Both the position numbers and the translations under genes were made by a program. Shown here piece by piece: positions 4,108 through 64,000 of a DNA stretch of 64,000 nt. The stretch is taken from NCBI GenBank assembly GCA_041747555.1, contig JBGTEY010000007.1, positions 11,426 to 75,425 on the forward strand, in the 5' to 3' direction. Each line of letters opens with the position of its first letter. Within the stretch, counting starts at the first letter, position 1. The notes beneath the pieces are model-generated. The model did not search any database and was not told where the DNA came from. It saw only the letters and a program-made list of their open reading frames with translations. The stretch is from Patescibacteria group bacterium (lineage in GTDB: Bacteria > Patescibacteriota > Microgenomatia > UBA1400 > PJMF01).

Positions 4108-4848
4108 ATGCCACAACTCATATTTGATGGCTCACAAGTTACCATACTCATCGCTTTCTTAGGCGGAATTTTGACGTTTTTTGCCTCGTGTCTTTTGCCG
4201 TTGGTACCTACATACCTGGCATATTTAAGCGGTGTACAGCTCAAAAGTGATTCGAAAGGTCGTAGGACTGTGTTTCGGGCTGCATTGTTTTTTGTGTTTG
4301 GGTTCATTTCTGTCTTCATCCTACTTGGCTTGGCAGCCTATCAATTTGCTGCGATTGTCGCTCCGTATCGAGAGATAGTGAGTCGAATGAGTGGGGTTCT
4401 TTTTATTGCAATGGGGCTCTTTATGCTCGGCGTGTTCAAGCACTTTGGTCAGACTGAGAGAAAATTACATCTGGAAAACTTATTTCAAAATCACGTCCAC
4501 ATCCATGCACTACTCACTGGTGTCGCATTTGGTTTTGGGTGGAGTCCTTGTATTGGGCCGGTATTAGCAGTCATTCTGTTTTGGTCGGCTGCACAAGAAA
4601 CTATGTTGATGGGCACGCTACTTTTACTCGTGTATGGTTTTGGTCTAGGTTTGCCATTTTTGTTAGCCGCGCTTGGTCTAGAAAAGGTTTTAAAAAAGAT
4701 TACACAGAACCCGTCAATTGCGCGAAATCTCAATCTTTTCTCAGCAGTATTGATTATCCTTGCAGGATTGGCATTGTTGACTGGAACACTCGACGCAATC
4801 AGCTTTTGGGTGTTATCACGCTTTAACCTGAGCGCACTAGCAGCATGA
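4108..4848 (+). CDS. ccdA: Cytochrome c-type biogenesis/thiol-disulfide transporter CcdA (DsbD transmembrane-domain family)
   Basis: Polytopic membrane protein with the two conserved Cys motifs FASCLLPLVPTYLAYLSG and GFGWSPCIGPVLAVIL. Start moved to ATG 4108, which follows a TACAAT at 4091-4096 and is near-leaderless. Confidence 0.75.
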   Translation: MPQLIFDGSQVTILIAFLGGILTFFASCLLPLVPTYLAYLSGVQLKSDSKGRRTVFRAALFFVFGFISVFILLGLAAYQFAAIVAPYREIVSRMSGVLFIAMGLFMLGVFKHFGQTERKLHLENLFQNHVHIHALLTGVAFGFGWSPCIGPVLAVILFWSAAQETMLMGTLLLLVYGFGLGLPFLLAALGLEKVLKKITQNPSIARNLNLFSAVLIILAGLALLTGTLDAISFWVLSRFNLSALAA

Positions 4849-7400: not shown

Positions 7401-9263
7401 ATGACCATAAATGATATTCGAAAATCCTATTTAGACTTTTTTGAGGCCCAAAGTCACGCAGTAGTGCCTTCTTCAAATATTGTTCCAGAAAATGACCCCA
7501 CGACATTATTTACCGGTTCTGGCATGCAACCAATGGTGCCGTACCTACTCGGTGAAACCCATCCAAAGGGTACGAGGATTGTCGATTCACAAAAATGTTT
7601 TCGGACGCAAGATATTGAAGAAGTCGGAGATAATCGACACACTACCTTTTTTGAAATGCTGGGAAATTGGTCATTAGGGGATTATTTTAAGAAAGATCAA
7701 CTTACTTGGCTTTTTACATTTCTGACAAGTGAACTTGGTCTTCCCGCAGAGCGATTGTATGCGACGGTGTTTAGTGGGAACAAATCCCTTGGAATTGATC
7801 AGGATGATGAATCGGTTGACATCTGGAAAAAGCTTTTCTCTGATGCAGGGGTGCGCGCAGAAGCCAAGAAACATGCAGAAGAAAAAGGCATGCAGGGAGG
7901 TCGAATTTTTTACTACGATGAAACCAAAAACTGGTGGTCCCGTGCGGGTGTGCCAGACAACATGCCGCCCGGTGAGCCAGGAGGTCCTGATAGTGAAGTT
8001 TTTTACGATTTTGGTGAGGATCGTGGATTTCACGAGCTTTCTGAATGGAAAGATCAGCCGTGTCACGTGAATTGTGATTGTGGACGGTTTATTGAAATTG
8101 GAAATTCTGTGTTTATGGAATTCCAAAAGCAAGAAGATGGGTCGTTTGAACCGCTAGCGCATAAGAATGTTGATTTTGGTGGTGGACTTGAGCGAATCGG
8201 TGCTGCTGTGCTTGATAATCCAGACGTGTTCAGGACCACAGGCTTCATGCCAATCATTCGATTTTTAGAAGAAAAAACAAAGAGAAGTTATGATGAAATA
8301 GAAGTCCAGCATAGTTTTCGGGTGATTGCAGATCATGTTCGTGCTGCAGTTATGATGGCATCCGACGGCGTACGTCCATCAAACAAAGAGCAAGGCTATT
8401 TTTTGAGACGGGTAATTCGTCGCGGTATTCGGTATGCAAAATTGGTCAATATAGATGAATCCATACTTTCTGACCTGGTTCCAATTGTGGCTAAGATCTA
8501 TGCGGACGTCTATCCAGAGGTTGCAGTAAACGCACAAGAGCTTGCAACCGTATTGAGCCAAGAAGAAGCAAAATTTTCCAAGGCTCTCGATAGAGGTTTA
8601 GCAGAAATTGAAAAACTCCCCAAAATTGACGGCGTCATGGCGTTTAAGCTCTATGAAACGTATGGATTTCCTTTTGAATTAACCCAAGAAATCGCAGCAG
8701 AGAGAGGTCAACCTCTAGAAAGAAGAGAATTTGATGACGCCAGAGCTGCTCATGCCAAGAAGTCGCGGACAGCATCTGCGGGTAGATTTAAAGGTGGTCT
8801 CCAAGACAGCAGTGAAATCACAACGCAGTATCACACCGCGACGCATCTCTTGCATGCCGCACTCAGAAAAGTACTAGGGGACCACGTGCAACAAAAGGGC
8901 TCTCATATCACTGCTGAACGGGCTCGATTTGATTTTTCACATGGCCAAGCACTTTCAGAAGATGAATTAAATGCCGTTGAAAGCCAAATTAATAAGTGGA
9001 TTGCAGCCGCGTTACCAATGACTGCACAAACTCTTCTCAAACAAACCGCACTCAAAGCAGGTGCACTTGCTTTTTTTGTTGAAAAGTACCCTGACGAAGT
9101 AACCGTGTACACAATTGGCAAGGATCCAGACACGGATTGGATCTCAAAAGAGCTTTGTGGCGGTCCGCATGTCGAGAACACAGGTGAAATACCACCTATT
9201 GAAGTATTCAAAGAACAAGCTAGCAGTAGCGGTGTTCGTCGTGTGTATCTCAGGGCTCGCTAA
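7401..9263 (+). CDS. alaS: Alanine--tRNA ligase, a short 620-aa form. It has the catalytic, tRNA-recognition and editing domains but no C-terminal C-Ala domain.
   Basis: N-terminus FFEAQSHAVVPSSNIVPENDPTTLFTGSGMQPMVPY ... FEMLGNWSLGDYFK is the class II AlaRS core. Editing-domain motifs HTATHLLHAALRKVLGDHVQQKGSHI and CGGPHVENTG are present. The protein ends about 30 aa after the editing Cys. Confidence 0.9.
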   Translation: MTINDIRKSYLDFFEAQSHAVVPSSNIVPENDPTTLFTGSGMQPMVPYLLGETHPKGTRIVDSQKCFRTQDIEEVGDNRHTTFFEMLGNWSLGDYFKKDQLTWLFTFLTSELGLPAERLYATVFSGNKSLGIDQDDESVDIWKKLFSDAGVRAEAKKHAEEKGMQGGRIFYYDETKNWWSRAGVPDNMPPGEPGGPDSEVFYDFGEDRGFHELSEWKDQPCHVNCDCGRFIEIGNSVFMEFQKQEDGSFEPLAHKNVDFGGGLERIGAAVLDNPDVFRTTGFMPIIRFLEEKTKRSYDEIEVQHSFRVIADHVRAAVMMASDGVRPSNKEQGYFLRRVIRRGIRYAKLVNIDESILSDLVPIVAKIYADVYPEVAVNAQELATVLSQEEAKFSKALDRGLAEIEKLPKIDGVMAFKLYETYGFPFELTQEIAAERGQPLERREFDDARAAHAKKSRTASAGRFKGGLQDSSEITTQYHTATHLLHAALRKVLGDHVQQKGSHITAERARFDFSHGQALSEDELNAVESQINKWIAAALPMTAQTLLKQTALKAGALAFFVEKYPDEVTVYTIGKDPDTDWISKELCGGPHVENTGEIPPIEVFKEQASSSGVRRVYLRAR

Positions 9264-9299
9264 AACGTCCTATTCTCATAACGCCTAGAGTTTGGTTAA

Positions 9300-11711
9300 A
9301 TGGTAAGGATGGCCAAAACTACTTCTGAACCTGTTGCTCAAAATAGAGGGCATGTACTGTGCGTGATTCTTTCTGAAAACCAAGTGCAGTCGTTTCTCGT
9401 TGCGTACGGCTCAGATGGAGTTGAAATTCTAGAACAATCTCAAGCGGTGCCGTATGGCGACACCAAGTCTGTTGTCAAAAGAGTTGATGACAGCCTCCAA
9501 GATCTGGGCAAGGAATCAGAGAACATAGATCAAGTTATTTTTGGTGTTGAGCATACCTGGATTACACGAGGAGATTTAGCACCAGAGAAACAAAAAATTA
9601 TCACCACCATTGCAGACGCACTTTCATTGAAGCCACAGGGCTTTGTAGACTCACTCGAATCATTAATTCAGAAGCAACTTCATATCAGTCCTAGAAGTTC
9701 AGAAATTATGGTGGAAATTAGTCAGGCATCGATTTCTATAGGAGTTGTTATCCATGGAGACCTTCGTGGAATAGAGGTCATTGGTAGATCAGCATCTATT
9801 GTTGACGACATTGGTGAAGGATTTGCGCGTTTTGCGGTAAATTTAGAGCCTGATGGTGTGTATTTGCCTACTAAAATAGTCCTGTCATCACTCGATGTTC
9901 CTGAAGATACGCTTCGCAAATTTCAGCAGGAGTTGTTGGCAATCGACTGGCCATCTCAGTCGAGGTTTTTGCAATCCCCAGCGATTGATGTGTTGTCGCG
10001 AAACTTAAGTGTAACGATTATTGCTGAAGAAGCAGGTAAAGGAGTTGCGCTCGCGAATGATATTCCAGTTGCTGCTGATTTGAGCAGTTCAGGAGAAGTC
10101 AACGAGGTGGTGAATGCAGATGAGGACGAGCCTTCCGAAGACTTTGATTTTAAACCTGTTGCCACCAGTGTGACACCTGTTGCAGCAGCGACTACAGGTG
10201 CAGCTGTCGCAACAGCCAGTTCAGTCACAGCGGGTGAAGCTGTAGTGAGCCCTGATTTACTCGACACTAAATCGGGAGAACCTAAAACTGCACGCCCTAA
10301 AGCTGAATTCTCTGAAGCAAAAACTTTTGGAGTGCCTATTACCTCGAAGCAATTAGCCGAAATAGAACTACAAGCAGTGCGCAAGGGTGAGCTACCTGAC
10401 GATAGTGAAGCGACAGCAGTTGAAACCACGTCAGTCTGGTCAAAGGTATTATCTGGAGTAACCACGCTTTTTAGTCGATCTCAGGCAACTGCTCGACCTG
10501 CGTCAGGGTCACATGCTCATAATCCAAAACGATTTATAGTAATTGGGGTATTGGCTGGCTTGATAGCACTTTTGGGATTGAGTGTCTTGGGGACAGTATT
10601 TTTCTCATCAGCTGTGGTCACAATTATCCCAAATAAACAGTTAGTTAGTAAAACACTATCGCTCACCTTGGATGAATCTGCAACTTCACCAGATGCAGCT
10701 TCACTAACACTTCCTGCAAAACAAGAAACGGCATCACTTTCTGATGAAAGCACCGCACCGACAACAGGCACGACATTGGTAGGAGAATCTGCAAAAGGTA
10801 CGATAGAAATAATAAACAAGACTACATCTAACAAAATATTTGCTGCTGGTACTGAGGTTACAACTGGCGAGCTTACCTTTACGTTCGATGAAGAAGTTGA
10901 AGTACCAGCAGCAGTTGTTGAAGAGGATCCAGAAGAAAAAGAAGAGGTCAAAAAATTTGGTGAAGCAACGGTTGCAGTCACTGCCTCAATAATTGGATCT
11001 GACAGCAATATCGAGGGCGGCACGGAGTTGACCGTAGCATCATTTGATAGCTCGACTTACACTGCGCGCGCAACTGAGGCATTTACTGGAGGAGAAGAGC
11101 GAGAAGTAAAAGTTGTTTCTGAGAAAGATCGCACCGACATCCAAACCGCTATGCTCCAATCATTATTGGAGGAAGTCAATAAAGAATTTAGAGAAAAAGA
11201 ACAAAATGGCACTCGATATTTACCTATCGAGCGTGTTGAGGTAGTAAGTGCTGAATTTAATAGAGAAGTTGGTGATGAAGCCAATGAAATAACACTCAAA
11301 CTTGAGGTGACCGCCGAAACACTTTCATACGATATCTCTGATCTAAAGCTTATTACCCAAGAAGTCTTACAATCTGAAGTTCCAGAAGGATATGCTCTGG
11401 TGAATAAAGAGCCAGATATTCTATCTCAACCCATCGATCCCTCTGAAAATGAAGACGATGAGGAAGGAGTAGACTCGTTTTTAATCAAGGGAGACGTTAG
11501 TTCAGCAGCAGTACCTACATTTGAAAATCAAAATCTTGCGCAAGATATCGCGGGCAAATCTATAGAAGAAGCAACCAGGCAACTCAGAGAACTAGATTCG
11601 GTGAAATCTCTCAGCATCACACTCAGACCCTCTCTGTTACAAAATTTCTATTCGCGGTTACCCAAAGACCAGCAGCGAATTGAAATCAAAGTGTTGGTAG
11701 AGGAGGAGTAG
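9300..11711 (+). CDS. Hypothetical 803-aa bitopic membrane protein. It has a ~400-aa N-terminal cytoplasmic domain, possibly a degenerate actin-like FtsA/PilM fold, then one TM helix and an acidic Thr/Ser/Glu-rich ectodomain.
   Basis: Long ORF with a TM helix at FIVIGVLAGLIALLGLSVLGTVFF, about aa 405-428. N-terminal patterns HVLCVILSENQVQSFLVAYGSDGVEIL and DDIGEGFARFAV loosely resemble actin-fold phosphate loops. The alternative start at 9309 has a better SD. Confidence 0.45.
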   Translation: MVRMAKTTSEPVAQNRGHVLCVILSENQVQSFLVAYGSDGVEILEQSQAVPYGDTKSVVKRVDDSLQDLGKESENIDQVIFGVEHTWITRGDLAPEKQKIITTIADALSLKPQGFVDSLESLIQKQLHISPRSSEIMVEISQASISIGVVIHGDLRGIEVIGRSASIVDDIGEGFARFAVNLEPDGVYLPTKIVLSSLDVPEDTLRKFQQELLAIDWPSQSRFLQSPAIDVLSRNLSVTIIAEEAGKGVALANDIPVAADLSSSGEVNEVVNADEDEPSEDFDFKPVATSVTPVAAATTGAAVATASSVTAGEAVVSPDLLDTKSGEPKTARPKAEFSEAKTFGVPITSKQLAEIELQAVRKGELPDDSEATAVETTSVWSKVLSGVTTLFSRSQATARPASGSHAHNPKRFIVIGVLAGLIALLGLSVLGTVFFSSAVVTIIPNKQLVSKTLSLTLDESATSPDAASLTLPAKQETASLSDESTAPTTGTTLVGESAKGTIEIINKTTSNKIFAAGTEVTTGELTFTFDEEVEVPAAVVEEDPEEKEEVKKFGEATVAVTASIIGSDSNIEGGTELTVASFDSSTYTARATEAFTGGEEREVKVVSEKDRTDIQTAMLQSLLEEVNKEFREKEQNGTRYLPIERVEVVSAEFNREVGDEANEITLKLEVTAETLSYDISDLKLITQEVLQSEVPEGYALVNKEPDILSQPIDPSENEDDEEGVDSFLIKGDVSSAAVPTFENQNLAQDIAGKSIEEATRQLRELDSVKSLSITLRPSLLQNFYSRLPKDQQRIEIKVLVEEE

Positions 11712-11712
11712 C

Positions 11713-12669
11713 GTGAGTACAAACCCTGTCGACATGCATGAACAGTTGGTGTCACTCTATCGGAGAGCGCTTCTTAGTGGAATTGACATGTCAGAGGTTG
11801 ATGACAAGATCTCAGAGTTTTCAGTTCGGCAAGATGCGAGTGAAAAAGTAGAAGAATTCCATGATGCAGAGCGAATCGGTCGAACGAAACGCGCTCTACC
11901 GACGCTGATGCGGGTAGGATCATTCTCGATTCCAGCACTTTTTATTGGAGTTGGCCTGTATTTGGTTGGGACTGCGGTTGTTCCAATCTTGGGATCATAT
12001 ATTTCGGCAACGTCTCAGTTGCAAGCTGCACAACTGATGGCGCCTATTCCTCAAGAAGAAGTTCTTGATGTTACGCCATTAGTGATCACTCAAGAACAAC
12101 CGAGTGAAAAAAGTCAGGTAGATTTGCAATCTGAGCCACAAATTATTGACGAGGCACTTGACTACACCAACTTAAATAATTGGTTTGCAGACGCAACCTT
12201 GCCAGAGTTGGCAAATGCAAAAGAAGTTGAAGGCGAAGAATATATTGTCGATATACCTAAGCTTAATGTAAGCAACGCTCGAGTGAAGGTTGGTGGTACC
12301 GACTTGGATGAGAGTTTAATCGCGTATCCAGGCACTGCGCTCCCAGGCGATGTTGGAGCACCTGTAATTTTTGGACACTCAGTGTTACGGGCCTACTACA
12401 ACCCTAGTGAAAAGAATTCACGCCGCTACAATTCCATATTTAGTACCATTATGACGCTCAAGGCCGGTGATGAAATCTTTGTCACCCAAGATGGGGTAAA
12501 ATATAAATATCTGGTTCAAGAAAAAACAGAAGTAAAACCAGAGGATGTGTATATCCTGAAACAAAACTACTCGGTGAAGCAGCTCAAATTAGTAACGTGC
12601 ACTCCTGAGGGAACATACCTTCGACGCGGCGTGGTTACTGCAACTTTGGTCCCGTTTGCTGAAGAATAA
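11713..12669 (+). CDS. Sortase-family transpeptidase, membrane-anchored
   Basis: GTG start 1 nt after the upstream stop and preceded by AGGAGGAG. N-terminal TM helix. Catalytic His in VIFGHSVLRAYY. The TLxTC motif appears as KLVTCTPEGTYLRRGVVTA, with the active-site Cys and the conserved Arg. Confidence 0.75.
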   Translation: MSTNPVDMHEQLVSLYRRALLSGIDMSEVDDKISEFSVRQDASEKVEEFHDAERIGRTKRALPTLMRVGSFSIPALFIGVGLYLVGTAVVPILGSYISATSQLQAAQLMAPIPQEEVLDVTPLVITQEQPSEKSQVDLQSEPQIIDEALDYTNLNNWFADATLPELANAKEVEGEEYIVDIPKLNVSNARVKVGGTDLDESLIAYPGTALPGDVGAPVIFGHSVLRAYYNPSEKNSRRYNSIFSTIMTLKAGDEIFVTQDGVKYKYLVQEKTEVKPEDVYILKQNYSVKQLKLVTCTPEGTYLRRGVVTATLVPFAEE

Positions 12670-56182: not shown

Positions 56183-56213
56183 AGTGCCTTTCTACAATCT
56201 CTCTTGAGATTGG

Positions 56214-56429
56214 TTATAACCCCTTATCTTTAAGACATTTTGTATACATGTCGGCTACTGGGTACCAGACTTCGACTCCATCTGCACTTCTGGTGAGATA
56301 GCGCGAACTCTGGGCACATTGGTAGCGAGCTTCGTTATTGACCTGCATTTGGTAGAGGTAAAGACCAAAACCAACGAGACCAGCGAAAATCAAACCAATG
56401 ATGAGGGTGGGTATTGTATTATTTTGCAT
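56214..56429 (-). CDS. Small single-pass membrane protein, 71 aa, first gene of the GT2 operon
   Basis: MQNNTIPTLIIGLIFAGLVGFGLYLYQ then a Cys-containing tail. It lies 31 nt upstream of GT2. The ORF-track N-extension was rejected. Confidence 0.4.
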   Translation of the reverse strand: MQNNTIPTLIIGLIFAGLVGFGLYLYQMQVNNEARYQCAQSSRYLTRSADGVEVWYPVADMYTKCLKDKGL

Positions 56430-56626
56430 GTTTTTCTTTCTGTTTTCTTTGTACAGACACCGGATGCTCGTTGCTTTGTGCCTTGTGCTGGGTCTGCTTC
56501 TATTGAAGTAGATTGTCCAGCGCCTTGTGGCGTGAGCATTGAGCAAGCCTGGTGTTCCGAGACCACCTCTTTTTGGAGATGAGCTCAGAACACCAGGCTA
56601 CAGGGTTGTAGTGGTGTTTTGTTACT

Positions 56627-56658
56627 AACCAGGTGACGGCTTTTAGGCCGTCACCTGG
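56627..56658 (-). terminator. Bidirectional rho-independent terminator
   Basis: ACCAGGTGACGGCttttaGGCCGTCACCTGGT. Confidence 0.65.
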
Positions 56659-56672
56659 TACCTCATAGAGGC

Positions 56673-57842
56673 CTAGGGGGTAGGGCGTTCGTAATCGACT
56701 TCTCCGTGAATCAGGACTTCGATACCTGACGTCACGAAAAACTGATTATTTACACCGAGACAACCTTCAATAAAGCTGCAGTTGCCTCCCGCATTCGCGA
56801 GTTCCGTTGGGTTTAACTCACTGACACCATCTGTCATGTTCCACGTTGCGTGGGCCATGACGGCAGTAATTGCCTCGGGGAGGTGATCCCCATGGAAATA
56901 ATTGCCAGTGACAATGAAAGTGTTATCCAGGGTACCCGTAAATTCGGCCGAAGCGTAGCCCACATTTACGATGAGCAACGCGCAACCCAAGGGTTGATCT
57001 TCAGTAGTTACACAAGATCCCAGCCCGTCTAAGGACCAAGACCCTGTTACGAGCGTGTAATGCTCGCCCGCAACTACCAAATCACACTGGTCATTAGCCG
57101 CCCCACAGAATTGAGTTTGGTCCTGTGCGTAGTACATACCCCATTCGGCCGGAAAATCGGCTTCGGGGTTGTCTACGTCAGGGAACTCAACCCACAGGGG
57201 GGGATCCAGTGTGGGGAAGGCTGCCCAAGGGATTGAGCCTTGTCCGAGCATCTGGAGGGTTGCACCCTCGAAATACTCGACATACCAGCCGTTCACATCT
57301 GCTACCTGAGCGGCAGCAGGTAAACTGCTAGTTGTAACGTTTGTGTCGGTCGTGGTCGTGACTTTTACGCCATTCTCAACCTTCACCTCAGTTTCCAGAC
57401 CTCTCGCTTCCTCTACTTGATCCCGATACTCCTCAAGGGAGCTGGGAATACCACCGAGAATGCCGTTTGAGCTTTCAGTGGTTTCGGTCGAGGGTTGTGC
57501 GGGGGTTAGCGCAAGCGCCACTTGGTTTGAAACATCCTCTAAGAATTCCGTGTCCGTAATGATACGGGCGACGATCTCCTCAGTGTCAGCATCTTCACCG
57601 TCGGCACCTGCAACGCCTTGTGTACCGCGAGGGCCCTGAGGGCCTTGTGGGCCGGTTGTCGGCTCGATTTTCTCAAGCTCGGCAACCCTTTGGTACAAAT
57701 CATTAACTGCTACACGGTTTTCCGTGATTGCAGGGTTGGCCTCTGCCTGGTTTTCATTCCAGAACCACAGACCAACCATTGCCAGTACCAAGAAAAAAGA
57801 GAGAAGGGCGAAGCTAATCGCCAGGTTTACTTTTGCGTTCAT
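56673..57842 (-). CDS. Membrane-anchored protein with a short collagen-like (Gly-X-Y)7 stalk and a ~250-aa Cys-containing C-terminal globular domain
   Basis: Start at MNAKVNLAISFALLSFFLVLAMVGLWFW, with GGAGG 8 nt upstream. GPQGPQGPRGTQGVAGADGED. Confidence 0.55.
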   Translation of the reverse strand: MNAKVNLAISFALLSFFLVLAMVGLWFWNENQAEANPAITENRVAVNDLYQRVAELEKIEPTTGPQGPQGPRGTQGVAGADGEDADTEEIVARIITDTEFLEDVSNQVALALTPAQPSTETTESSNGILGGIPSSLEEYRDQVEEARGLETEVKVENGVKVTTTTDTNVTTSSLPAAAQVADVNGWYVEYFEGATLQMLGQGSIPWAAFPTLDPPLWVEFPDVDNPEADFPAEWGMYYAQDQTQFCGAANDQCDLVVAGEHYTLVTGSWSLDGLGSCVTTEDQPLGCALLIVNVGYASAEFTGTLDNTFIVTGNYFHGDHLPEAITAVMAHATWNMTDGVSELNPTELANAGGNCSFIEGCLGVNNQFFVTSGIEVLIHGEVDYERPTP

Positions 57843-58405
57843 TTTTTTGCCTCCTTGACAATTGATGAACATGGTCGCCGAGATCATGGTGGCGACCAAA
57901 GTTGACGTGCCGGATACCATCCGGCCATTTTTTCCTTCCGCGAAAACCGCGGATCGTCTAGCATCAAAGCGGGGCGGAAGGGGTACCAGACGTGCGATCG
58001 TTTGATCACACACCTAATGCCCCTTCCGCGAGGAGAACATGAACGTGCATTTACCCTTTTGTAATAAAAAACACTATAAATACATTCATCACTCGTAACT
58101 TAATACGCGTGATTCCCTGTAGCCTGTTAAAGATCGACTGTTTCGAACCGAAGTTCAATTCAGTCAATTTGTTTGTTTAAGCCGAAGCTTAAACGCTGCT
58201 CTGTCCCGTTTCGCCAAACATCGGCGCGATGCCGAGCTGGCAAGTGAGCTGAGCAGGGCAGTGGTTGTATCGCTCTTCAAAACTTACAACCACTGCTCTA
58301 CGCAGCTTGGTGTCGCTCTAAAATTCATGAAATGGGGTCGGGGTTTGAAGAGCGACTGACAGTTTTTTATTTAATGTACGTACTCATTGAGTACCACTAT
58401 GAATA

Positions 58406-58434
58406 ACTATATCACTGTATAACTAACTTGTCAA
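58406..58434 (-). promoter_or_regulatory. Sigma70 promoter on the minus strand (TTGACA-N17-TATAGT) within the shared CCCATAGTATTGACA motif
   Basis: Plus-strand ACTATA at 58406-58411 and TGTCAA at 58429-58434. It fires toward the collagen-like gene about 560 nt away. Confidence 0.45.
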
Positions 58435-58687
58435 TACTATGGGATGTAAAAATGGGTTATCCAGGCTAAATCAGTCTATTTTGCTTGGTTTATTGGTTGA
58501 TTTGTGGTGCTGGTTTGCCTGGGAAGGGAAACCAGAGTGGACCGGAGTTGAGTTAAGCCTTTTTTAGGGGCACAGGTGTTTTTAGGCACCTGCTCAAGCT
58601 CCGGTCCGGTGGGATCCTCGCCGTTACGACTTGCCTAGCGCGAGGCTAGGCTGGCGTGCGGGGGAGGAGTTCTGGTAAGTTGGGGAA

Positions 58688-59308
58688 TTAATCGCTTATC
58701 GTGATCTCGAAGGGGAAGCTTTGGCTACCAAGTGTCAGTAGTCCGTCAAAGCTTTTGGTACCTCCCGGGGTGTAGGAATACCAGTGACTCGTTTGTGCTG
58801 AGCCATTAGTAAATTCCACATCTGTTTCCGTTCCGTCTCCAAAAGAAACATTTCCCCACCCATTGGTGGTTGGGGAGCAGTTAAAATTGATGACGATATG
58901 GTTAACAGCTTGACCCTGAGAAGTGACGGTTGTGCAGTTGTTTATTGGGGGGGAGTCGTCAATCACAACTTTGTAGTGAAACGTGCTGTTTCCTACAGTA
59001 AAGAATGTGTTGTACTCCATGATACCACCAGGCGTGTAGCTGTAGTCATGGCTTGTCGTTCCGGGAGGAACGCTAAGCCCGGTGCCAGTACCGTCTCCAA
59101 AATCAAGGAAACCTTCAACATCCCCATCGCACTCGACGGTGAAATTGAAGCTGTTGATAGTCCCTTGTTTGACGACAGCAGTTGAGGTACAGCTGAGCCC
59201 ACCTACTGTTTCAGCTTGGGCTGTTTGAGTTCGAGTTGCGCCTGCAAGCAGTGCAATTAAACCCAAAAGTAGCACTAAAAATGCGATTTTTTTCACTATT
59301 TGTTTCAT
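58688..59308 (-). CDS. Secreted protein with two tandem PKD-like domains
   Basis: Signal peptide MKQIVKKIAFLVLLLGLIALLAGA. Repeat 1 FLDFGDGTGTGLSVPPGTTSHDYSYTPGGIMEYNTFFTV. Repeat 2 VSFGDGTETDVEFTNGSAQTSHWYSYTPGGTKSFDGLLTL. Both fit the PKD pattern FGDG ... H.Y ... G.Y. Confidence 0.65.
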   Translation of the reverse strand: MKQIVKKIAFLVLLLGLIALLAGATRTQTAQAETVGGLSCTSTAVVKQGTINSFNFTVECDGDVEGFLDFGDGTGTGLSVPPGTTSHDYSYTPGGIMEYNTFFTVGNSTFHYKVVIDDSPPINNCTTVTSQGQAVNHIVINFNCSPTTNGWGNVSFGDGTETDVEFTNGSAQTSHWYSYTPGGTKSFDGLLTLGSQSFPFEITISD

Positions 59309-59782
59309 TTTCTTACTTTTTTCCTTTTTCAGAATATTGTTGTCTTCTAATGAAACCCCAAGTATTGAACTTGAGTCAGGGAATCACACCCCGTCTGCCA
59401 AACGCCCGGCTAGGCCTTGAGTCATTTACACCTCCTTTTGGTTTTTCTGTAGACTCGTCATAAACTCCAGTTTCCTCAAGTACATGACGAGTCTACCGAA
59501 TTGCCGAAGGAAGTCCCTTTGATCAATCCTTTTTCCTTACCAGATGTTAAAGAGCGGCGATGCGTGTGCATCGCGTCCTACGCGCGCGACTCAACACCAG
59601 ATGCAATATCTGGGTGAGGGTTGCGAGCAGGCGGATGGGGACAACGTTTGTTGTTTGGTTGGGGAGATGGAGGCGAATTGGTTGTCTCCAACCGTGTGCT
59701 CACAGTGTATATAAGCGTATCACCTCTAGGTCTATAAGTCAATACTATGGGATGTTAAAGAGAAATGTCTTGACCAAAAAAA

Positions 59783-59812
59783 TGACCGCCCCCTCGAGAG
59801 AGGGCGGTCTGT
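59783..59812 (-). terminator. Bidirectional GC-rich terminator, a member of the repeated CCGCCCCC-core family
   Basis: AAAAAAATGACCGCCCCCtcgagagaGGGCGGTCtgtt. Confidence 0.65.
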
Positions 59813-59817
59813 TAGTT

Positions 59818-60162
59818 CTATCTGCGAATCACACCTCCTTTTGGTACCTTGTGTATGACCCAAGTACCAAATATGGTTGCAAGAGGTACGACCCCTGCTA
59901 TGCCACAAGAAAAAAGTCCCAGTCCAAGTAGTTGTAGCCCCATTATTAGTAGGTTGCTTGTACTGGCGGTCATCGCGGTCGTAGCGCTCAATCCCAGACC
60001 ATATGTCGCTGCGAAACCAGCAACGTACGATAGTATGAGAATAAACCACCACCTACCTCTTTTTTCTTTGGTAAAAATGGTGGCACAAACGAGCCACCAC
60101 ATCACCCCTGTCCAGAGCCCAAACCAATAAGGCCAGTTCTCTGGATTAAAAATTGATAGCAT
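59818..60162 (-). CDS. Small 3-TM membrane protein, 114 aa, in the WWF family shared with 60453..60725 and 62963..63235
   Basis: SD AAGGAGGT 7 nt upstream. MLSIFNPENWPYWFGLWTGVMWWLV ... RGRWWFILILSYVAG. Confidence 0.5.
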   Translation of the reverse strand: MLSIFNPENWPYWFGLWTGVMWWLVCATIFTKEKRGRWWFILILSYVAGFAATYGLGLSATTAMTASTSNLLIMGLQLLGLGLFSCGIAGVVPLATIFGTWVIHKVPKGGVIRR

Positions 60163-60420
60163 ATAGCTACCTCCTTCGAATAATCTCCTCCGAAGAGGGA
60201 AGCTCTACGCACCGTAATGCGCACAGCTCCCCTCTTCGAGAGATCGTTTGGAGGTCCAGAGGTGAAATGTTAAATAGCAGATAGATGATGCAAGCTCAAA
60301 CTCCACGACTTTTGACGCAAATGTCAGGATCGTTTTGTGCAAACTTCATCAGGATAATTATACAGGAAGTAGTATTAGAATGTACTATGGGATGTATTAA
60401 AAGTGTTTTTGAGCAAAAAA

Positions 60421-60464
60421 ATGGCCGCCCCCCTTGGGGAGCGGCCGTAGCTCTATTTTTTTTC
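60421..60464 (-). terminator. Bidirectional terminator, near-identical to the copy at 62926..62966
   Basis: AAAAAAATGGCCGCCCCCCttggGGAGCGGCCgtagctctaTTTTTTTT. Confidence 0.7.
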
Positions 60465-60725
60465 ACCTCTTCTCAGACTAAGAAACGCCACGCCAACAGA
60501 TATTACGATTGGCGTCAATTTTTGGACAATTTCCAGCCAGCCGCCGTCGGCGGCGGGTGAAACCTGTAAAATTGTGTTTTCAATGTTGATCATTGAAAAC
60601 CATAAAGATGTGGCAATTGCTACAAACCACCATTTAGAACTATTTTGTCGCAGGCCAATCTGTATGGTGATATAGACTAATGCCAGTGTACTAATTGCTG
60701 TCAAAAAATAAACTAAAAAAATCAT
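60453..60725 (-). CDS. Small 3-TM membrane protein, 90 aa, paralog of 62963..63235
   Basis: GGAGG then ATG at 60725. MIFLVYFLTAISTLALVY ... KWWFVAIATSLWF. The ORF-track N-extension to 60887 was rejected because it runs through the conserved leader. Confidence 0.5.
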   Translation of the reverse strand: MIFLVYFLTAISTLALVYITIQIGLRQNSSKWWFVAIATSLWFSMINIENTILQVSPAADGGWLEIVQKLTPIVISVGVAFLSLRRGEKK

Positions 60726-60990
60726 TTGTTTCCTCCATGAGAGTTTTATTCCCTTTCCTCGTGAAAGGGCCACCAAACACGATGATGCAGATACATCATG
60801 TGCAGCGTCCCTTTCTCGAGATGGAGGCGTGGTTTTATGAGCCTTAGTGAAAAGGTGTTTTAAAGAGCTAAATCGATAGATGCTCATTTATATGTAACAG
60901 TATCTGATGCGATTTCAGGCTGTTCCACACAAACTACATCAATTCTATTATGACATTAAACGGCCAAGTGTCAATACTATAGGACTATAA
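60726..60990 (-). repeat. Conserved promoter-plus-leader repeat, copy 1. It holds TTGACA-N16-CATAAT and a ~215-nt structured 5' UTR.
   Basis: About 85% identical to 63236..63492. Anti-SD CCUCCAU at plus 60821-60827 can pair with the SD region at 60732-60738. Alternative GAAAGGG/CCCUUUC pairings are possible. Confidence 0.55.
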
Positions 60991-61016
60991 GAGATATTTT
61001 GTGAAATGGCTCGATC

Positions 61017-62870
61017 TCAGGCCGCTACTGCCCCATACCCAATCGTCGACTCTAAACACCGCATCCAGTTGCAGTGCGGGTACGAAATTATTTTTTTATA
61101 AAATCCCCAATTTTCTGCAGCTTTAAAGAGTTTTGCGGTCTGCGAGTCATTTTCCAGCTCAAAACGGTGTACTCCAGAGGAAATCACTGCACTTGGTTCT
61201 TCAAGTAAGTGCATAAATAATTTAGCAAATGTCTTGAAATCATCAACGGGGTGCGAGCCCACAACAGGCACATACACCTCATTAAGAAACGTAAAGAAAC
61301 TATCTATTACCTGTTGTTCTGGAGCAAAGGTAAGCGTCGACTTATGGAGCGGCCGGTGACCCGTTAGCTCCCAGGCGGGGGAGGCTTCTCGCTTTGAAAG
61401 TCCAATAAATGATGCAAACGCGAGATGATTGGGGTTATTTTGATCAAATTGAGCTTGAGTGCGAGTCTCGATTGCTTCACGACCCAAATCATACACTGAT
61501 CGCGCATATATCATGCCTGTCCTTAACTGAAATTGCGTAGAAAACTCAAGTTGCGTCACGGTTGCTTCTGTTTTTCTGGTTATGTGGAGTAGTTCGTCGC
61601 CTTGTTCTTTAAATTTTTTTGCAGTTTGTAGGAGTGAGGCTGCTTGTTCGTCGCCATTTTTGGCCTTTTGATCAAGTAATTTTATAAATTTAGGATTACT
61701 GAATTGATCGAGCACAAAATGTTTGATGCCTTCTGGTGAATTGTATGTTTCTATTGTTTTTTGGAGCGCTAATTCTTCAATAAGTTCGCGCTTAGAACTG
61801 TATGAACTTGCGCCTTGTTGATAACTTATTTCTGTCACGTGTGACCAATATGCCGTTGTTCTTACAAACTGATATCCATCGACGCGTGTTTCTGAATCGG
61901 TCAGAAAATTCCTCAAGAATTCTGGATTTTGAAGGGAAGTAAGCAACGATTGATACTGTGTAGACTCGAGATCTTTTGCAATCTGCTCAGATTTAGCATT
62001 GAAGCGATAAAACTCGACTAAAAGATCAGGCATAGTGGTGAGAAATTCAGGAGCTTGCGCATGGATTTGCTTGAAGAGTGTACCCCAGCCTTGGGAGTTC
62101 ATATCTCTAAAATATGCAATAGCTTTTACAACTTCTATAAGTTCAATATCATGAATACCAATGGATTGGGGACCTTCGGCTCGGGGAAGGGAGTAATAAA
62201 CACCGTCTGAGATATGCCTGGTAGATGCCAGGAGTTCTGCAACTGCTTTTTCACCAATGAGAATTGTAGCCACACCCGTGCCAACTCGAGCAGTTTCTGC
62301 AACGACGTCAAGATTGTATGCCTTGATGGAGTTGGTATTTGCTCCGGAAATCTGGAATGCCATGAGGGCTGCTTCTGGTGGGATATCGGTCAGCGATGCA
62401 TATTGAAGAAAAAGTTCCATGAAAACCTGTAAATATTCTTGAAACTCTTGATCTTGCTCTGTTTGCGTTTCAGTTTGAGGGTAAAAATAGAGCGTAGCGA
62501 GGCGCGCAACTCTAGGGAGGAGGACAGCGATAGCTTTTTTTCTTTGTTCTGAAAGTGTTGTATTTTCTTCTAGTAGGCTAAGAAAATGGTGTTTCGCTTC
62601 TTCACTTATGATTTTAGATGGATCTAAGGGGGTGTATGAGTCTTTTTTAAGTCGTAAACGGCGTTCATTCATGGATTCGAGTACAGGGTCGATTTCAGCA
62701 TGATTAATCCCTAGCCGAGCGGTCGCGTAGGCAGCAGCACCTATTGCAGCGCGGCCAAACAGACCTCGTCTACTCACCTTAATTAGGTTGAGTGCGCGAC
62801 TAATGGGACCAAGTTGTTTATCTGGATGATCTGATGGTGGGGAGGAACTTGTTTCTACTGATGAATTCAT
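61017..62870 (-). CDS. Hypothetical 617-aa exported protein with a twin-arginine (Tat) signal
   Basis: VSRRGLFGRAAIGAAAYATARLG at aa 30-52. No other recognisable motifs. Confidence 0.5.
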   Translation of the reverse strand: MNSSVETSSSPPSDHPDKQLGPISRALNLIKVSRRGLFGRAAIGAAAYATARLGINHAEIDPVLESMNERRLRLKKDSYTPLDPSKIISEEAKHHFLSLLEENTTLSEQRKKAIAVLLPRVARLATLYFYPQTETQTEQDQEFQEYLQVFMELFLQYASLTDIPPEAALMAFQISGANTNSIKAYNLDVVAETARVGTGVATILIGEKAVAELLASTRHISDGVYYSLPRAEGPQSIGIHDIELIEVVKAIAYFRDMNSQGWGTLFKQIHAQAPEFLTTMPDLLVEFYRFNAKSEQIAKDLESTQYQSLLTSLQNPEFLRNFLTDSETRVDGYQFVRTTAYWSHVTEISYQQGASSYSSKRELIEELALQKTIETYNSPEGIKHFVLDQFSNPKFIKLLDQKAKNGDEQAASLLQTAKKFKEQGDELLHITRKTEATVTQLEFSTQFQLRTGMIYARSVYDLGREAIETRTQAQFDQNNPNHLAFASFIGLSKREASPAWELTGHRPLHKSTLTFAPEQQVIDSFFTFLNEVYVPVVGSHPVDDFKTFAKLFMHLLEEPSAVISSGVHRFELENDSQTAKLFKAAENWGFYKKIISYPHCNWMRCLESTIGYGAVAA

Positions 62871-62925
62871 TTAGCTAGTATGTCAGGGATTCAAGGAGAT
62901 GTAAATTATTGTGCGTTTTTGTCAA

Positions 62926-62966
62926 AAAAATGGCCGCCCCCCTTGGGGAGCGGCCTGTAGCTCTAT
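62926..62966 (-). terminator. Bidirectional terminator, copy of 60421..60464
   Basis: AAAAAAATGGCCGCCCCCCttggGGAGCGGCCtgtagctctaTTT. Confidence 0.7.
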
Positions 62967-63235
62967 TTATTATTACCTCCTATGAGTCCTAACAAGACTA
63001 TGAGTCCAGCCGCCGAAACAGGGGCCAAGACCATTACCAAATAAGCTTCCCAACCCTCGTTGGGAACTTGATTTGTTGTCAAAGCGACCCATTCTAGGGC
63101 CTCAACGGCAAGTAGATACAGTGCTACGGTGGTTGCCCACCATAGCAATCCGCCCGTTCGCGCAATCTTCCATGCGGAAAAATAGAGCCCTATAAGGGAG
63201 GTGACAGCTACAATGACCGAAAACATAAAAATCAT
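62963..63235 (-). CDS. Small 3-TM membrane protein, 90 aa, paralog of 60453..60725
   Basis: GGAGG then ATG at 63235. MIFMFSVIVAVTSLIGLY ... LLWWATTVALYLL. Same length as its paralog and the same Trp-Trp position. Confidence 0.5.
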   Translation of the reverse strand: MIFMFSVIVAVTSLIGLYFSAWKIARTGGLLWWATTVALYLLAVEALEWVALTTNQVPNEGWEAYLVMVLAPVSAAGLIVLLGLIGGNNK

Positions 63236-63492
63236 TTTTTTGCCTCCAAAGTGTATTCCTTTCTCAAGAAAGGGCCACTAAACACGAAAAAGAAGTACTC
63301 GTGCGCAGCGTCCCTTCCTCGAGATGGAGGCGTGGTTTTATGAGCCTTAGTGAGAAGGTGTTTTAAAGAGCAAATCGAAAGATGCATGTTAGTGTCTTAC
63401 AGTGTCTGATGCTATATCAGGCTGTCTAACACAAACTACATCTATTCTATTATGACATTAAACGGCCAAGTGTCAATACTATAAGGACTTAA
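63236..63492 (-). repeat. Conserved promoter-plus-leader repeat, copy 2
   Basis: TGTCAA at 63471-63476 and ATTATG at 63449-63454 on the plus strand. Anti-SD ATGGAGG at 63324-63330. Confidence 0.55.
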
Positions 63493-63542
63493 AATAGCGC
63501 AAGTAACATGTAAGCTACTTTCACATTGGTATCACACCAAAA

Positions 63543-63570
63543 ACCGCCCCCTAAGGAGCGGTTTGATTTG
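63543..63570 (-). terminator. Terminator downstream of 63612..63950
   Basis: AAAAACCGCCCCctaagGAGCGGTTTgatttg. Confidence 0.55.
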
Positions 63571-63611
63571 TAAATTTGGTACTCAAGCCGAAGGGCCAAG
63601 TAAAGTGAGGT

Positions 63612-63950
63612 TTAGCTCAATTTTCGTTTGATGACGAGTGCGCCAACGCCTGACAACATGCTTACAGCAGCGGTTGCAGTGGTTTGGGCATCGAGGGCTG
63701 TGTCAGCGGGAGTGTGTGTTTTCCCAAGGACTTGGCCTTCACGAAACTTAATTGATTGCTCTTGTTCACCGAATTGTTCTGCTTTGGCTTTACATTTTGA
63801 TGTTTGGCCATAAGCGCCAACTTCGCATTCAATCTCGATTTCTTGTTCGAGTGTTTGCTTTTGTGTGGCATCGGTTTCAGCTTGGGCCTGTGCAGGAGCA
63901 CTGACCATAAGTGCTGAAATGAGCAGAGCGGCAACGATAAGTTTGTTCAT
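63612..63950 (-). CDS. Small secreted protein, 112 aa. N-terminal signal peptide, a Cys pair, and a C-terminal hydrophobic segment plus KRK tail.
   Basis: AAGGAG upstream. MNKLIVAALLISALMVSAPAQAQA ... the C-terminal AAVSMLSGVGALVIKRKLS resembles the TM-plus-basic tail of cell-wall sorting signals, but no LPXTG is present. Confidence 0.5.
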   Translation of the reverse strand: MNKLIVAALLISALMVSAPAQAQAETDATQKQTLEQEIEIECEVGAYGQTSKCKAKAEQFGEQEQSIKFREGQVLGKTHTPADTALDAQTTATAAVSMLSGVGALVIKRKLS

Positions 63951-64000
63951 AGTGCTCCTTTTTTGTCTTACTACTTGACTACGCGGTTGATAATAAAAAT

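Follow-up and report, generated by a model that had tools for sequence, protein, structure and literature searches.

Putative boxA-containing, nut-like leader modules on a variable cell-envelope gene island of a Microgenomates-group bacterium

In a 64,000-nt stretch of a Patescibacteria genome (assembly GCA_041747555.1, contig JBGTEY010000007.1, positions 11,426 to 75,425; the whole stretch is hereafter called the window), eight open reading frames (ORFs) were found between 56.2 and 64 kb, every one on the minus strand, as an initial annotation of this DNA had stated. The units were named TU1 (63950-63612) to TU8 (56429-56214), and we interpret the region as a cell-envelope gene island of variable content, belonging to a genome of the Microgenomates group of the candidate phyla radiation (CPR). 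Five of the units, TU2, TU4, TU5, TU6 and TU7, have long leaders (about 188-557 nt), and with slightly better than even confidence we regard these five as rrn/λ-nut-like modules in which Nus-factor loading would be combined with translational gating, placed on a hypervariable envelope island. For comparison the related L011 (a metagenome-assembled genome from NCBI) and L032 (a Logan contig) were used together with the more distant L024, L026 and L039.

When searching the window for the Escherichia coli boxA consensus GYTCTTTAANA (Baniulyte et al. 2017, PMC5725501) only three perfect matches appeared, and these are located in the leaders of TU2 and TU4 (GCTCTTTAAAA) and of TU6 (GCTCTTTAACA). 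The elements of TU5 (GCTATTTAACA) and TU7 (GATCTTTAACA) contain one mismatch each, giving one boxA-like element per leader, all on the sense strand. With at most one mismatch allowed the whole window holds seven matches, five of them being the leader copies; a sixth, also within the island, lies shortly before the TU6 promoter. Extrapolated from the frequency of matches elsewhere in the window, ~0.02 would be expected by chance in the 1.6 kb of leaders. Perfect boxA sequences are also present in the leaders of TU6-like or TU7-like genes of L011, L024, L026 and L039. The leaders of the last three are otherwise unalignable, and between those of L024 and L026 no significant similarity remains beyond a 24-nt block that includes boxA (GCTCTTTAACAGGCATACAGGAAA). 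The predicted pairing of boxA is below the mean of its leader in all 10 leaders compared (mean pairing probability 0.23-0.55 versus 0.59-0.68), and the element lies 106-283 nt upstream of the start codon. Neither the window nor the examined loci of the relatives contain an rRNA locus, and nusG was not found among ten ORFs scanned near rpoB. Scans of viral contigs with boxA and its flank, with the TU7 RNA and with the promoter revealed nothing relevant.

In the TU7-type leaders boxA is enclosed by hairpins. In six genomes one hairpin ends 0-1 nt upstream of boxA and a second starts 1-4 nt after the sequence ACAGG, and the hairpin sequences differ between lineages. A covariance model of the hairpin-boxA-hairpin region, trained on nothing but the window type, identified L024 and L039 with E ~1e-5. 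The model-based alignment, in which 98.7% of the cells are paired, contains compensatory changes in 14 of 20 pairs; none of 500 shuffles reached the observed covariation, and slid controls pair in 32-42%. An alignment of the same region made with MAFFT was discarded, its hairpins being misaligned. In TU6 the hairpin GCGAUGC-ACAC-GCAUCGC ends one base before boxA, and all three substitutions found in its outer stem keep the pairing.

Downstream of boxA the same order is seen in the predicted minimum free energy (MFE) structure of each leader: first a stretch that can pair with the ribosome-binding site, next a long hairpin or a multi-branch domain, and last the Shine-Dalgarno (SD) sequence with AUG. 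In TU2, TU4 and TU5 the pairing CCUCC…GGAGG closes a stem of at least 20 bp. In TU6 it is the SD sequence of an upstream ORF (uORF) that is sequestered, by the pairing ACUUCCUU…AAGGAGGU, and in TU7 a segment complementary to the translation initiation region (anti-TIR, CGUUCAUGUUCUCC) pairs with GGAGG as well as with AUGAACG. The pairing probability of the SD sequence is 0.84-0.87 for TU2, TU4, TU5 and the TU6 uORF and 0.68 for TU7, to be compared with a mean of 0.47 for a control set of 53 other window genes. L032 has an inner domain of unrelated sequence and keeps the closing helix with matching changes, CACAUGAUUUCUCC pairing with GGAGGAAAAUCAUG, so that when the window is compared with L032 the anti-TIR and the TIR of TU7 covary. 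The TU6 uORF, which is served by the strongest SD sequence of its leader, is kept in L011 (~4795-4842) as 15 codons with the same stop; all changes are non-synonymous, and it may therefore act by being translated and not through its peptide. An exact 15-mer, ACCAAAAGGAGGTGT (minus strand), occurs both at the SD sequence of this uORF (59428-59442) and at the 3' end of the TU5 coding sequence (CDS; 59831-59845).

The leaders of TU6 and TU7 are unrelated in sequence both to each other and to those of TU2, TU4 and TU5 (type A), and they are highly conserved between genomes. The TU7 promoter together with transcript nt 1-348 is 98.3-98.6% identical in all three pairs formed by the window, L011 and L032, and in the TU6 transcript the initial 223 aligned nt (to ~59486) match L011 with 99.1% identity. 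The surroundings are less conserved, with 73-75% identity in the adjacent 3' untranslated region (UTR) and 43-85% in the distal leader, and protein identity between genomes is 33% for TU6 and 51% for TU7. Synonymous differences (pS) amount to 0.38 (dS 0.54) in the conserved GT2 glycosyltransferase gene directly after TU8 and to 0.67-0.70 in the next two genes (1118 aa and 374 aa). In the TU7 block only 5-6 differences separate each pair and the three genomes are about equally distant, which argues for selection and not for one recent transfer. The two leaders are under purifying selection, with an rRNA-like degree of constraint.

An unusually long 5' UTR rich in stable hairpins had earlier been ascribed to every gene of the island. 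The hairpins are confirmed, the leaders folding with z-scores of -4.7 to -7.0 against shuffles, while the length is found in the five units named above and not in TU1, with a leader of ~85 nt, or in TU3, whose intergenic space is at most 92 nt in total. The modules of TU2, TU4 and TU5 are paralogous, with 80-100% identity in promoter, leader and terminator. An alignment of TU2 with TU4 showed 98% nucleotide identity in the promoter, 80% in the leader and 100% in the terminator but 44% in the CDS, the proteins being colinear with 24% amino acid identity. TU5 has a leader of the same type that is more diverged and retains the 5' hairpin, linker and long hairpin of the other two, and among the type-A leaders 9 pairs display compensatory changes. 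A covariance model of the type-A leader (R1) recovered only the three copies of the window and none in the relatives, so that part of the promoter and terminator "family" reflects module duplication. A scan of genome contigs with a 19-mer from this leader gave 9 single matches in unrelated phyla, all attributable to chance, and Rfam 15 contains no match at gathering score to the window or its relatives, with chance-level hits only at E up to 10. A leader "ORF" of 51/54 aa in TU2/TU4 was considered as a leader peptide and rejected, since downstream indels shift the frame and the nucleotides stay conserved. The 12-mer CGCCTCCATCTC (minus strand) occurs in the anti-SD arms of TU2 and TU4 (63321-63332 and 60818-60829) and again, in an unpaired loop, close to where the TU6 leader starts (59664-59675).

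The promoters of the island are σ70-type and close to consensus (11/12 hexamer matches, TG-extended -10, -35/-10 spacing within 16-18 nt) and carry a common extension upstream of the -35 box, (ACAT)CCYATARYA-TTGAC, of which TU1 has a variant. The sequence ATAGTATTGAC is found in exactly four copies in the window, all on the minus strand and placed before TU7, TU6, TU4 and TU2 (58430-58440, 59738-59748, 60970-60980 and 63472-63482; shuffles average 0.9), and the 15-mer CCYATAGTATTGACA with at most one mismatch identifies the same four sites. A fifth copy, (T)ACATCCCATAGTA at 60383-60396, precedes TU5, where TTGACA is lost and the extended -10 (TGTATAAT) is kept. Of the five motif promoters listed in the initial annotation, four thus stand with TTGAC and the fifth by its extension, its -35 box being lost, and the second motif lies at 59737-59755 instead of 59747-59765. 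No extension was found on any other consensus-like promoter in the remaining 56 kb of the window, which include rpoB/C and ribosomal-protein operons; by the criterion of the annotation itself, the motif is therefore not the housekeeping -35 context named there as the other explanation for it.

An 18-mer, ACATCCCATAGTATTGAC, is common to TU6 and TU7, with 13-14 nt of it also present at TU5, and since the leaders of TU6 and TU7 are unrelated the motif crosses leader types. It is retained before orthologous genes in L011, L032, L024, L026 and L039, and in the distant relatives, where the flanks have diverged, the extension is kept at the same spacing (CCCATAACATTGACT in L024, CCTATAACTTGACA in L026 and L039). 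The extension is accordingly real, island-specific within the window and conserved in distant relatives. As the sign of a regulon, which the initial annotation had seen in it, it has to be read with some caution: the promoter likeness of TU2, TU4 and TU5 comes from whole promoter-leader modules being paralogues, so that part of the likeness among promoters and terminators is plain paralogy. Scanning metagenome contigs with the promoter 18-mer gave 10 loci (one of them, for example, inside a pyrR gene), all explained by chance.

The terminator core CCGC[CT]C..G[GA]GCGG followed by a T-tract is present in four copies in the window, all of them in the island, which bears out the earlier description of terminator variants with a common core. 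A G+C-rich hairpin with a U-tract follows TU1, TU2, TU4 and TU5 but not TU3, TU6, TU7 or TU8; in TU7 a 3' hairpin is present and the U-tract is missing, and after TU3, TU6 and TU8 no terminator could be recognised. A terminator for each gene is hence true of TU1, TU2, TU4 and TU5 only, and with none recognisable behind TU3, TU6 and TU8 a strictly monocistronic organisation is not upheld. That the terminators are bidirectional is likewise doubtful because the hairpins are better on the minus-strand RNA, a U·G pair there being a C·A mismatch on the plus strand, where in addition the T-run is 9 nt from the stem. The structured 3' UTR of TU6 contains a conserved long-range stem, CCGGACCGGAG…CUCCGGUCC, around an inner hairpin whose sequence differs among three genomes, a fold that may terminate transcription in a non-canonical way or stabilise the 3' end.

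The proposed module would consist, in order, of a σ70-type promoter with its extension, a long folded leader, a boxA usually right after a hairpin, an anti-SD segment, a long hairpin (~20 bp or more) and the SD/AUG, and four genes (TU1, TU2, TU4 and TU5) would also end in a strong intrinsic terminator. As in rRNA leaders, λ nut, suhB and CRISPR leaders, boxA may load NusB/NusE (S10) and other Nus factors onto the RNA polymerase. Such loading could let the polymerase cross the long, untranslated and structured leader without Rho termination and could guide co-transcriptional folding, while the closing anti-SD:SD helix would block translation until, for instance, RNase III, a helicase or some other factor opens or cleaves it. 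The promoter extension might add a common transcriptional input, by which the units could be co-regulated. Because the dominant conserved signal is the leader (98-99% identity, boxA and SD sequestration) and not the promoter, the control is suggested to act after initiation, and a promoter-binding factor would be compatible with it.

Several points weigh against this reading. The leaders are defined by predicted start sites, called from promoter consensus alone, and the boxA calls depend on likeness to a γ-proteobacterial consensus which may not be that of this lineage. TU5 has an A at the C4 position, critical in E. coli, and TU7 an A at position 2. The covariation of the nut-like site is drawn from 4 distinct sequences (five genomes) in an alignment fitted to the model. 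In TU7-type leaders the MFE-based SD sequestration changes with the sequence context, and in TU6 the SD sequence of the main ORF is weak and unpaired, that of the uORF being the only one sequestered. Finally, the T-rich, TAA-containing segment upstream of promoters (TCTCTTTAACA) is partly boxA-like, which leaves some room for reading the motif at the DNA level.

Among known systems the architecture is close to that of rRNA leaders and closer still to the λ nutL-N leader and suhB, systems in which Nus factors at boxA influence Rho termination as well as translation (PMC5725501, PMC7665894). The rRNA operon leader site (boxB-boxA-boxC, with NusB/NusE/NusA/NusG/SuhB) has the same boxA, GYTCTTTAANA, and a hairpin directly 5' of it, and it is likewise part of a long untranslated structured transcript from a strong σ70 promoter with long-range helices closing downstream. 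The island sites differ in preceding envelope-protein genes and in having a 3' extension, ACAGGC(A)UACAGG, with no recognised boxC. In the λ nutL/N leader, too, a boxA with a hairpin is found ~100-300 nt upstream of the regulated ORF, in structured RNA with a long duplex near the SD sequence; there, Nus/N binding represses translation and RNase III relieves the repression (PMC5725501). In contrast to λ, no N-like protein is known for the island, its hairpins stand both before and after boxA, and its sites are chromosomal and not phage-borne. Outside rRNA, boxA controls translation or Rho termination of specific transcripts, as in E. coli suhB and CRISPR leaders, and is phylogenetically widespread (PMC5725501, PMC7665894). 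In suhB it lies within 50 nt of the start codon, whereas the island elements are at a greater distance and are accompanied by a dedicated anti-SD helix; a further difference to suhB and the CRISPR leaders is that several non-homologous leaders in one island carry boxA. The 5' UTRs of S-layer and ompA mRNAs share with the island the long leader starting with stable hairpins on monocistronic, strongly expressed envelope genes, but no boxA or SD sequestration is reported for them, nor is conservation at the rRNA level known.

No report of boxA in CPR bacteria was found in the literature searched, and regulation in Patescibacteria is essentially unknown, with translational control suspected in host-attached versus free-living states (PMC11665869). 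If true, the nut-like modules would be the first gene-control module described in CPR/Microgenomates. The parts that can be put to the test are a boxA site that is not in rRNA, the promoter element with its conservation, and new structured leader RNAs of three families. Non-coding RNA that is 98-99% identical beside proteins diverged to 24-51% is an unusual signature, usable to find similar modules, and the genetics now emerging for these organisms could draw on the promoters, leaders and terminators as expression tools. A farther-reaching version, which we consider improbable, is that promoter extension and nut-like leaders together form a lineage-specific switch, in which a co-opted Nus machinery, possibly with an N-like or NusG-like factor, would toggle hypervariable host-contact proteins and the leader domains (220-350 nt) would act as sensors or trans-acting RNAs. 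With such a switch CPR/Patescibacteria would have their first defined regulatory circuit, and its RNAs would represent a new class for processive antitermination and translation gating.

Other explanations account for fewer of the observations. The initial annotation had suggested that the shared sequence upstream of the -35 box is read by a dedicated transcription factor, a sigma factor or an UP-like contact, so that the island would be a transcriptional regulon of surface proteins. Taken alone, with the leaders incidental, this we regard as a tentative possibility only. That the motif is island-specific in the window and keeps a fixed spacing in distant orthologous promoters speaks for it, TU5 retaining the extension despite the lost -35 fits a factor-binding site, and TU1, with its variant motif and no boxA leader, indicates that promoter and leader are separable. 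Nothing identifies such a factor, however, no regulator gene having been identified in the island, and the likeness of TU2, TU4 and TU5 is paralogy of the whole module. The conservation of 220-350 nt of transcribed sequence at 98-99%, the boxA elements and the SD sequestration would also be left unexplained, and the idea is compatible with nut-like leaders rather than an alternative to them. Less probable is that the units are ordinary high-expression cassettes for abundant envelope proteins (S-layer-like or adhesins), with hairpins that only stabilise the mRNA and a fortuitous likeness to boxA. Long stabilising leaders are known from S-layer and ompA mRNAs and offer a precedent, and the near-consensus promoters, the stable 5' hairpins at the transcript start and the secreted or membrane products beside glycosyltransferase genes are as expected from such cassettes. 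A purely structural stabiliser should, however, covary and not stay 99% identical, an 11-nt boxA match in every leader is far above the chance expectation and forms the only block kept in distant relatives, and sequestered SD sequences argue against maximal constitutive translation.

Even more doubtful is concerted evolution, in which the non-coding blocks would be homology arms for swapping coding cassettes and would be kept alike by gene conversion or recombination. It has in its favour the mosaic of conserved flanks and non-homologous or hyper-diverged coding parts, the identity of the TU2 and TU4 terminators over 33 nt and the island content varying between genomes. The nearly equal distances in the TU7 block look more like constraint, though, the block has its borders at the promoter and where the nut-like site ends, and compensatory stem changes are seen in diverged relatives. 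Neither a recombinase, an integrase nor attC-like sites were seen; in a search directed at diversity-generating retroelements and integrons, no template/variable repeat pair was found within 54-64 kb, where the 24-nt terminators are the only repeated hairpins, and no island protein has a Pfam match to a reverse transcriptase or integrase. Least probable of all, in our judgement, is a role of the leaders as ligand-sensing riboswitches or as small RNA genes in their own right, with TU2, TU4 and TU5 possibly being type I toxin mRNAs. Conserved unpaired linkers and SD sequestration would suit a riboswitch, as would the rRNA-like conservation of TU6 and TU7 with its fairly sharp 3' borders, and the products downstream of the type-A leaders are small and hydrophobic. 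Against this stand the absence of an Rfam family at either threshold, the fact that the three leader types, unrelated to one another, have nothing in common beyond boxA and their overall architecture, the lack of a terminator in the interval between conserved domain and CDS, and products that are neither transporters nor enzymes of one pathway. With 90-114 aa and 2-4 transmembrane (TM) segments the proteins are also larger than typical type I toxins (usually <60 aa, single-TM), and no antisense promoter or RNA was recognised for TU2, TU4 or TU5.

The positions of all elements are listed in Table 1. The island is less densely coding than its surroundings, with a coding share of 65% (gaps of 92-845 nt) against 93% (median gap 14 nt) in the rest of the window, where the first 56 kb contain alaS, a sortase gene, rpoB/C and ribosomal-protein operons. 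An apparent non-coding gap of 947 nt at 347-1293 was rejected as it is due to a CDS running off the window start. TU1 is the first gene of the island, being preceded on a Logan contig from the same sample by ftsX, an M23 peptidase gene and a DUF1295 gene, and TU8 is the last, with the GT2 gene following. In L024 the same two borders enclose a different set of genes, and in L011 a DUF4143 ATPase gene and other genes missing from the window are located upstream of the TU6-like gene, so the comparison between relatives recommended in the initial annotation did reveal a variable gene content. A tRNA-like 3' fragment (…GCGGGTTCGATTCCCGTCACCTCCA) is situated just upstream of the first island promoter in L024 (~8600-8680); it was not called by ARAGORN or Rfam and may be the remnant of an integration site.

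Table 1. Elements of the eight island units, given as positions in the window.
Element	Position	Strand	Characteristics
boxA form of the island leaders			GCUCUUUAACA
TU1 promoter	~60 nt beyond window end		CCCTATAACTATTGACA-17-TATAAT, variant motif; read on L033
TU1 CDS	63612..63950	-	112 aa; signal peptide, C-terminal hydrophobic anchor
TU1 intrinsic terminator	63544..63561	-	CCGCTCCTTAGGGGGCGG then TTTTT
TU2 promoter	63449..63489	-	CTTATAGTA extension, TTGACA, 16-nt spacer, TG-CATAAT
TU2 type-A leader	63236..63442	-	5' hairpin; boxA GCTCTTTAAAA 63371-63361; anti-SD CCUCC 63330-63326; long hairpin; SD GGAGG 63248-63244
TU2 CDS	62963..63235	-	90 aa; multi-TM protein
TU2 terminator	62932..62955	-	33-nt stretch identical to TU4 terminator
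TU3 CDS	61017..62870	-	617 aa; Tat-like SRRGLF; no motif promoter, long leader or terminator
TU4 promoter	60947..60987	-	CCTATAGTA, TTGACA, 16-nt spacer, TG-CATAAT
TU4 type-A leader	60726..60940	-	boxA GCTCTTTAAAA 60868-60858; anti-SD 60827-60823; SD 60736-60732
TU4 CDS	60453..60725	-	90 aa; multi-TM protein
TU4 terminator	60423..60446	-	core hairpin and T-tract
TU5 promoter	60357..60396	-	TACATCCCATAGTA extension kept; degenerate -35; extended -10 TGTATAAT
TU5 type-A leader	60163..60350	-	boxA-like GCTATTTAACA 60278-60268; anti-SD 60254-60250; SD 60174-60170
TU5 CDS	59818..60162	-	114 aa; multi-TM protein
TU5 terminator	59784..59809	-	core hairpin and T-tract
Sixth boxA-like copy	59753-59763	-	TCTCTTTAACA; between TU5 terminator and TU6 promoter extension; shares CTCTTTAACATC with TU6 boxA
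TU6 promoter	59714..59755	-	ACATCCCATAGTA, TTGACT, 17-nt spacer, TG-n-TACGCT
TU6 leader	59309..59707	-	hairpin; boxA GCTCTTTAACA 59555-59545; anti-SD 59514-59507; long hairpin; strong SD and uORF
TU6 uORF	59384-59425	-	13 codons; MTQGLAGRLADGV
TU6 CDS	58688..59308	-	206 aa; signal peptide, two Ig-like β-sandwich domains; 33% identical to L011 orthologue
TU6 structured 3' UTR	58445..58687	-	no U-tract; 73-75% conserved
TU7 promoter	58406..58447	-	ACATCCCATAGTA, TTGACA, 17-nt spacer, TG-n-TATAGT
TU7 leader, 5' domain	58052..58399	-	nut-like site 58166-58088: hairpin, boxA GATCTTTAACAGGCTACAGG 58135-58125, hairpin
TU7 leader, 3' domain	57843..58051	-	anti-TIR CGUUCAUGUUCUCC 58045-58032; SD GGAGG 57854-57850; AUGAACG 57842-57836
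TU7 CDS	56673..57842	-	389 aa; TM anchor, short collagen-like linker, conserved Cys-rich C-terminal domain
TU8 CDS	56214..56429	-	71 aa; single-TM; 94% identical to L011 orthologue

None of the eight island proteins has a Pfam match. All but TU3 begin with a hydrophobic signal or TM segment, TU3 having instead the Tat-like motif SRRGLF. Cell-envelope or surface proteins is a fair label for the products, and glycosyltransferase genes neighbour the island; the "host-interaction regulon" of the initial annotation goes further, by inference from the secretion signals. The predicted double-PKD protein, TU6, was modelled with two tandem immunoglobulin (Ig)-like β-sandwiches, and no Pfam PKD match was obtained. 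The collagen-like protein is TU7, with seven G-X-Y triplets followed by the Cys-rich domain. Its linker is variable and of low complexity, being collagen-like in the window, L039 and L032 and Pro/Thr-rich in L011, and the matches of the C-terminal domain to jelly-roll/cupin-like folds (Z up to 7.5) are too weak for assigning a function.

TU3 was taken for an ORFan after a word-index search, a view withdrawn when an exhaustive HMMER search found 25 other clusters; it belongs to a small and divergent family of ~600-aa proteins with 26 representative clusters. In L039 (573-2846, 2966-4846) a TU3 homologue with 39% identity lies divergently beside a gene for a TraG/TrwB-type coupling ATPase and a helix-turn-helix gene, a context that hints at a type IV secretion or conjugative module.

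The C-terminus of TU1 (63612-63700) and that of its L024 homologue (9290-9382) both contain K-x-H-x-PADTA followed by ~20 hydrophobic residues and a basic tail, an ending reminiscent of non-LPXTG signals for sorting to the cell wall or membrane. At the other end of the window a long CDS for a secreted protein with a signal peptide (MKFPEKIWLG…) occupies 1-1220 on the minus strand and runs off the window start. Further in, at 9300-12669 on the plus strand, an 803-aa ORF lacking a match in NCBIfam is followed by a sortase-family gene (11713-12669), and the two probably constitute a sortase/substrate pair.

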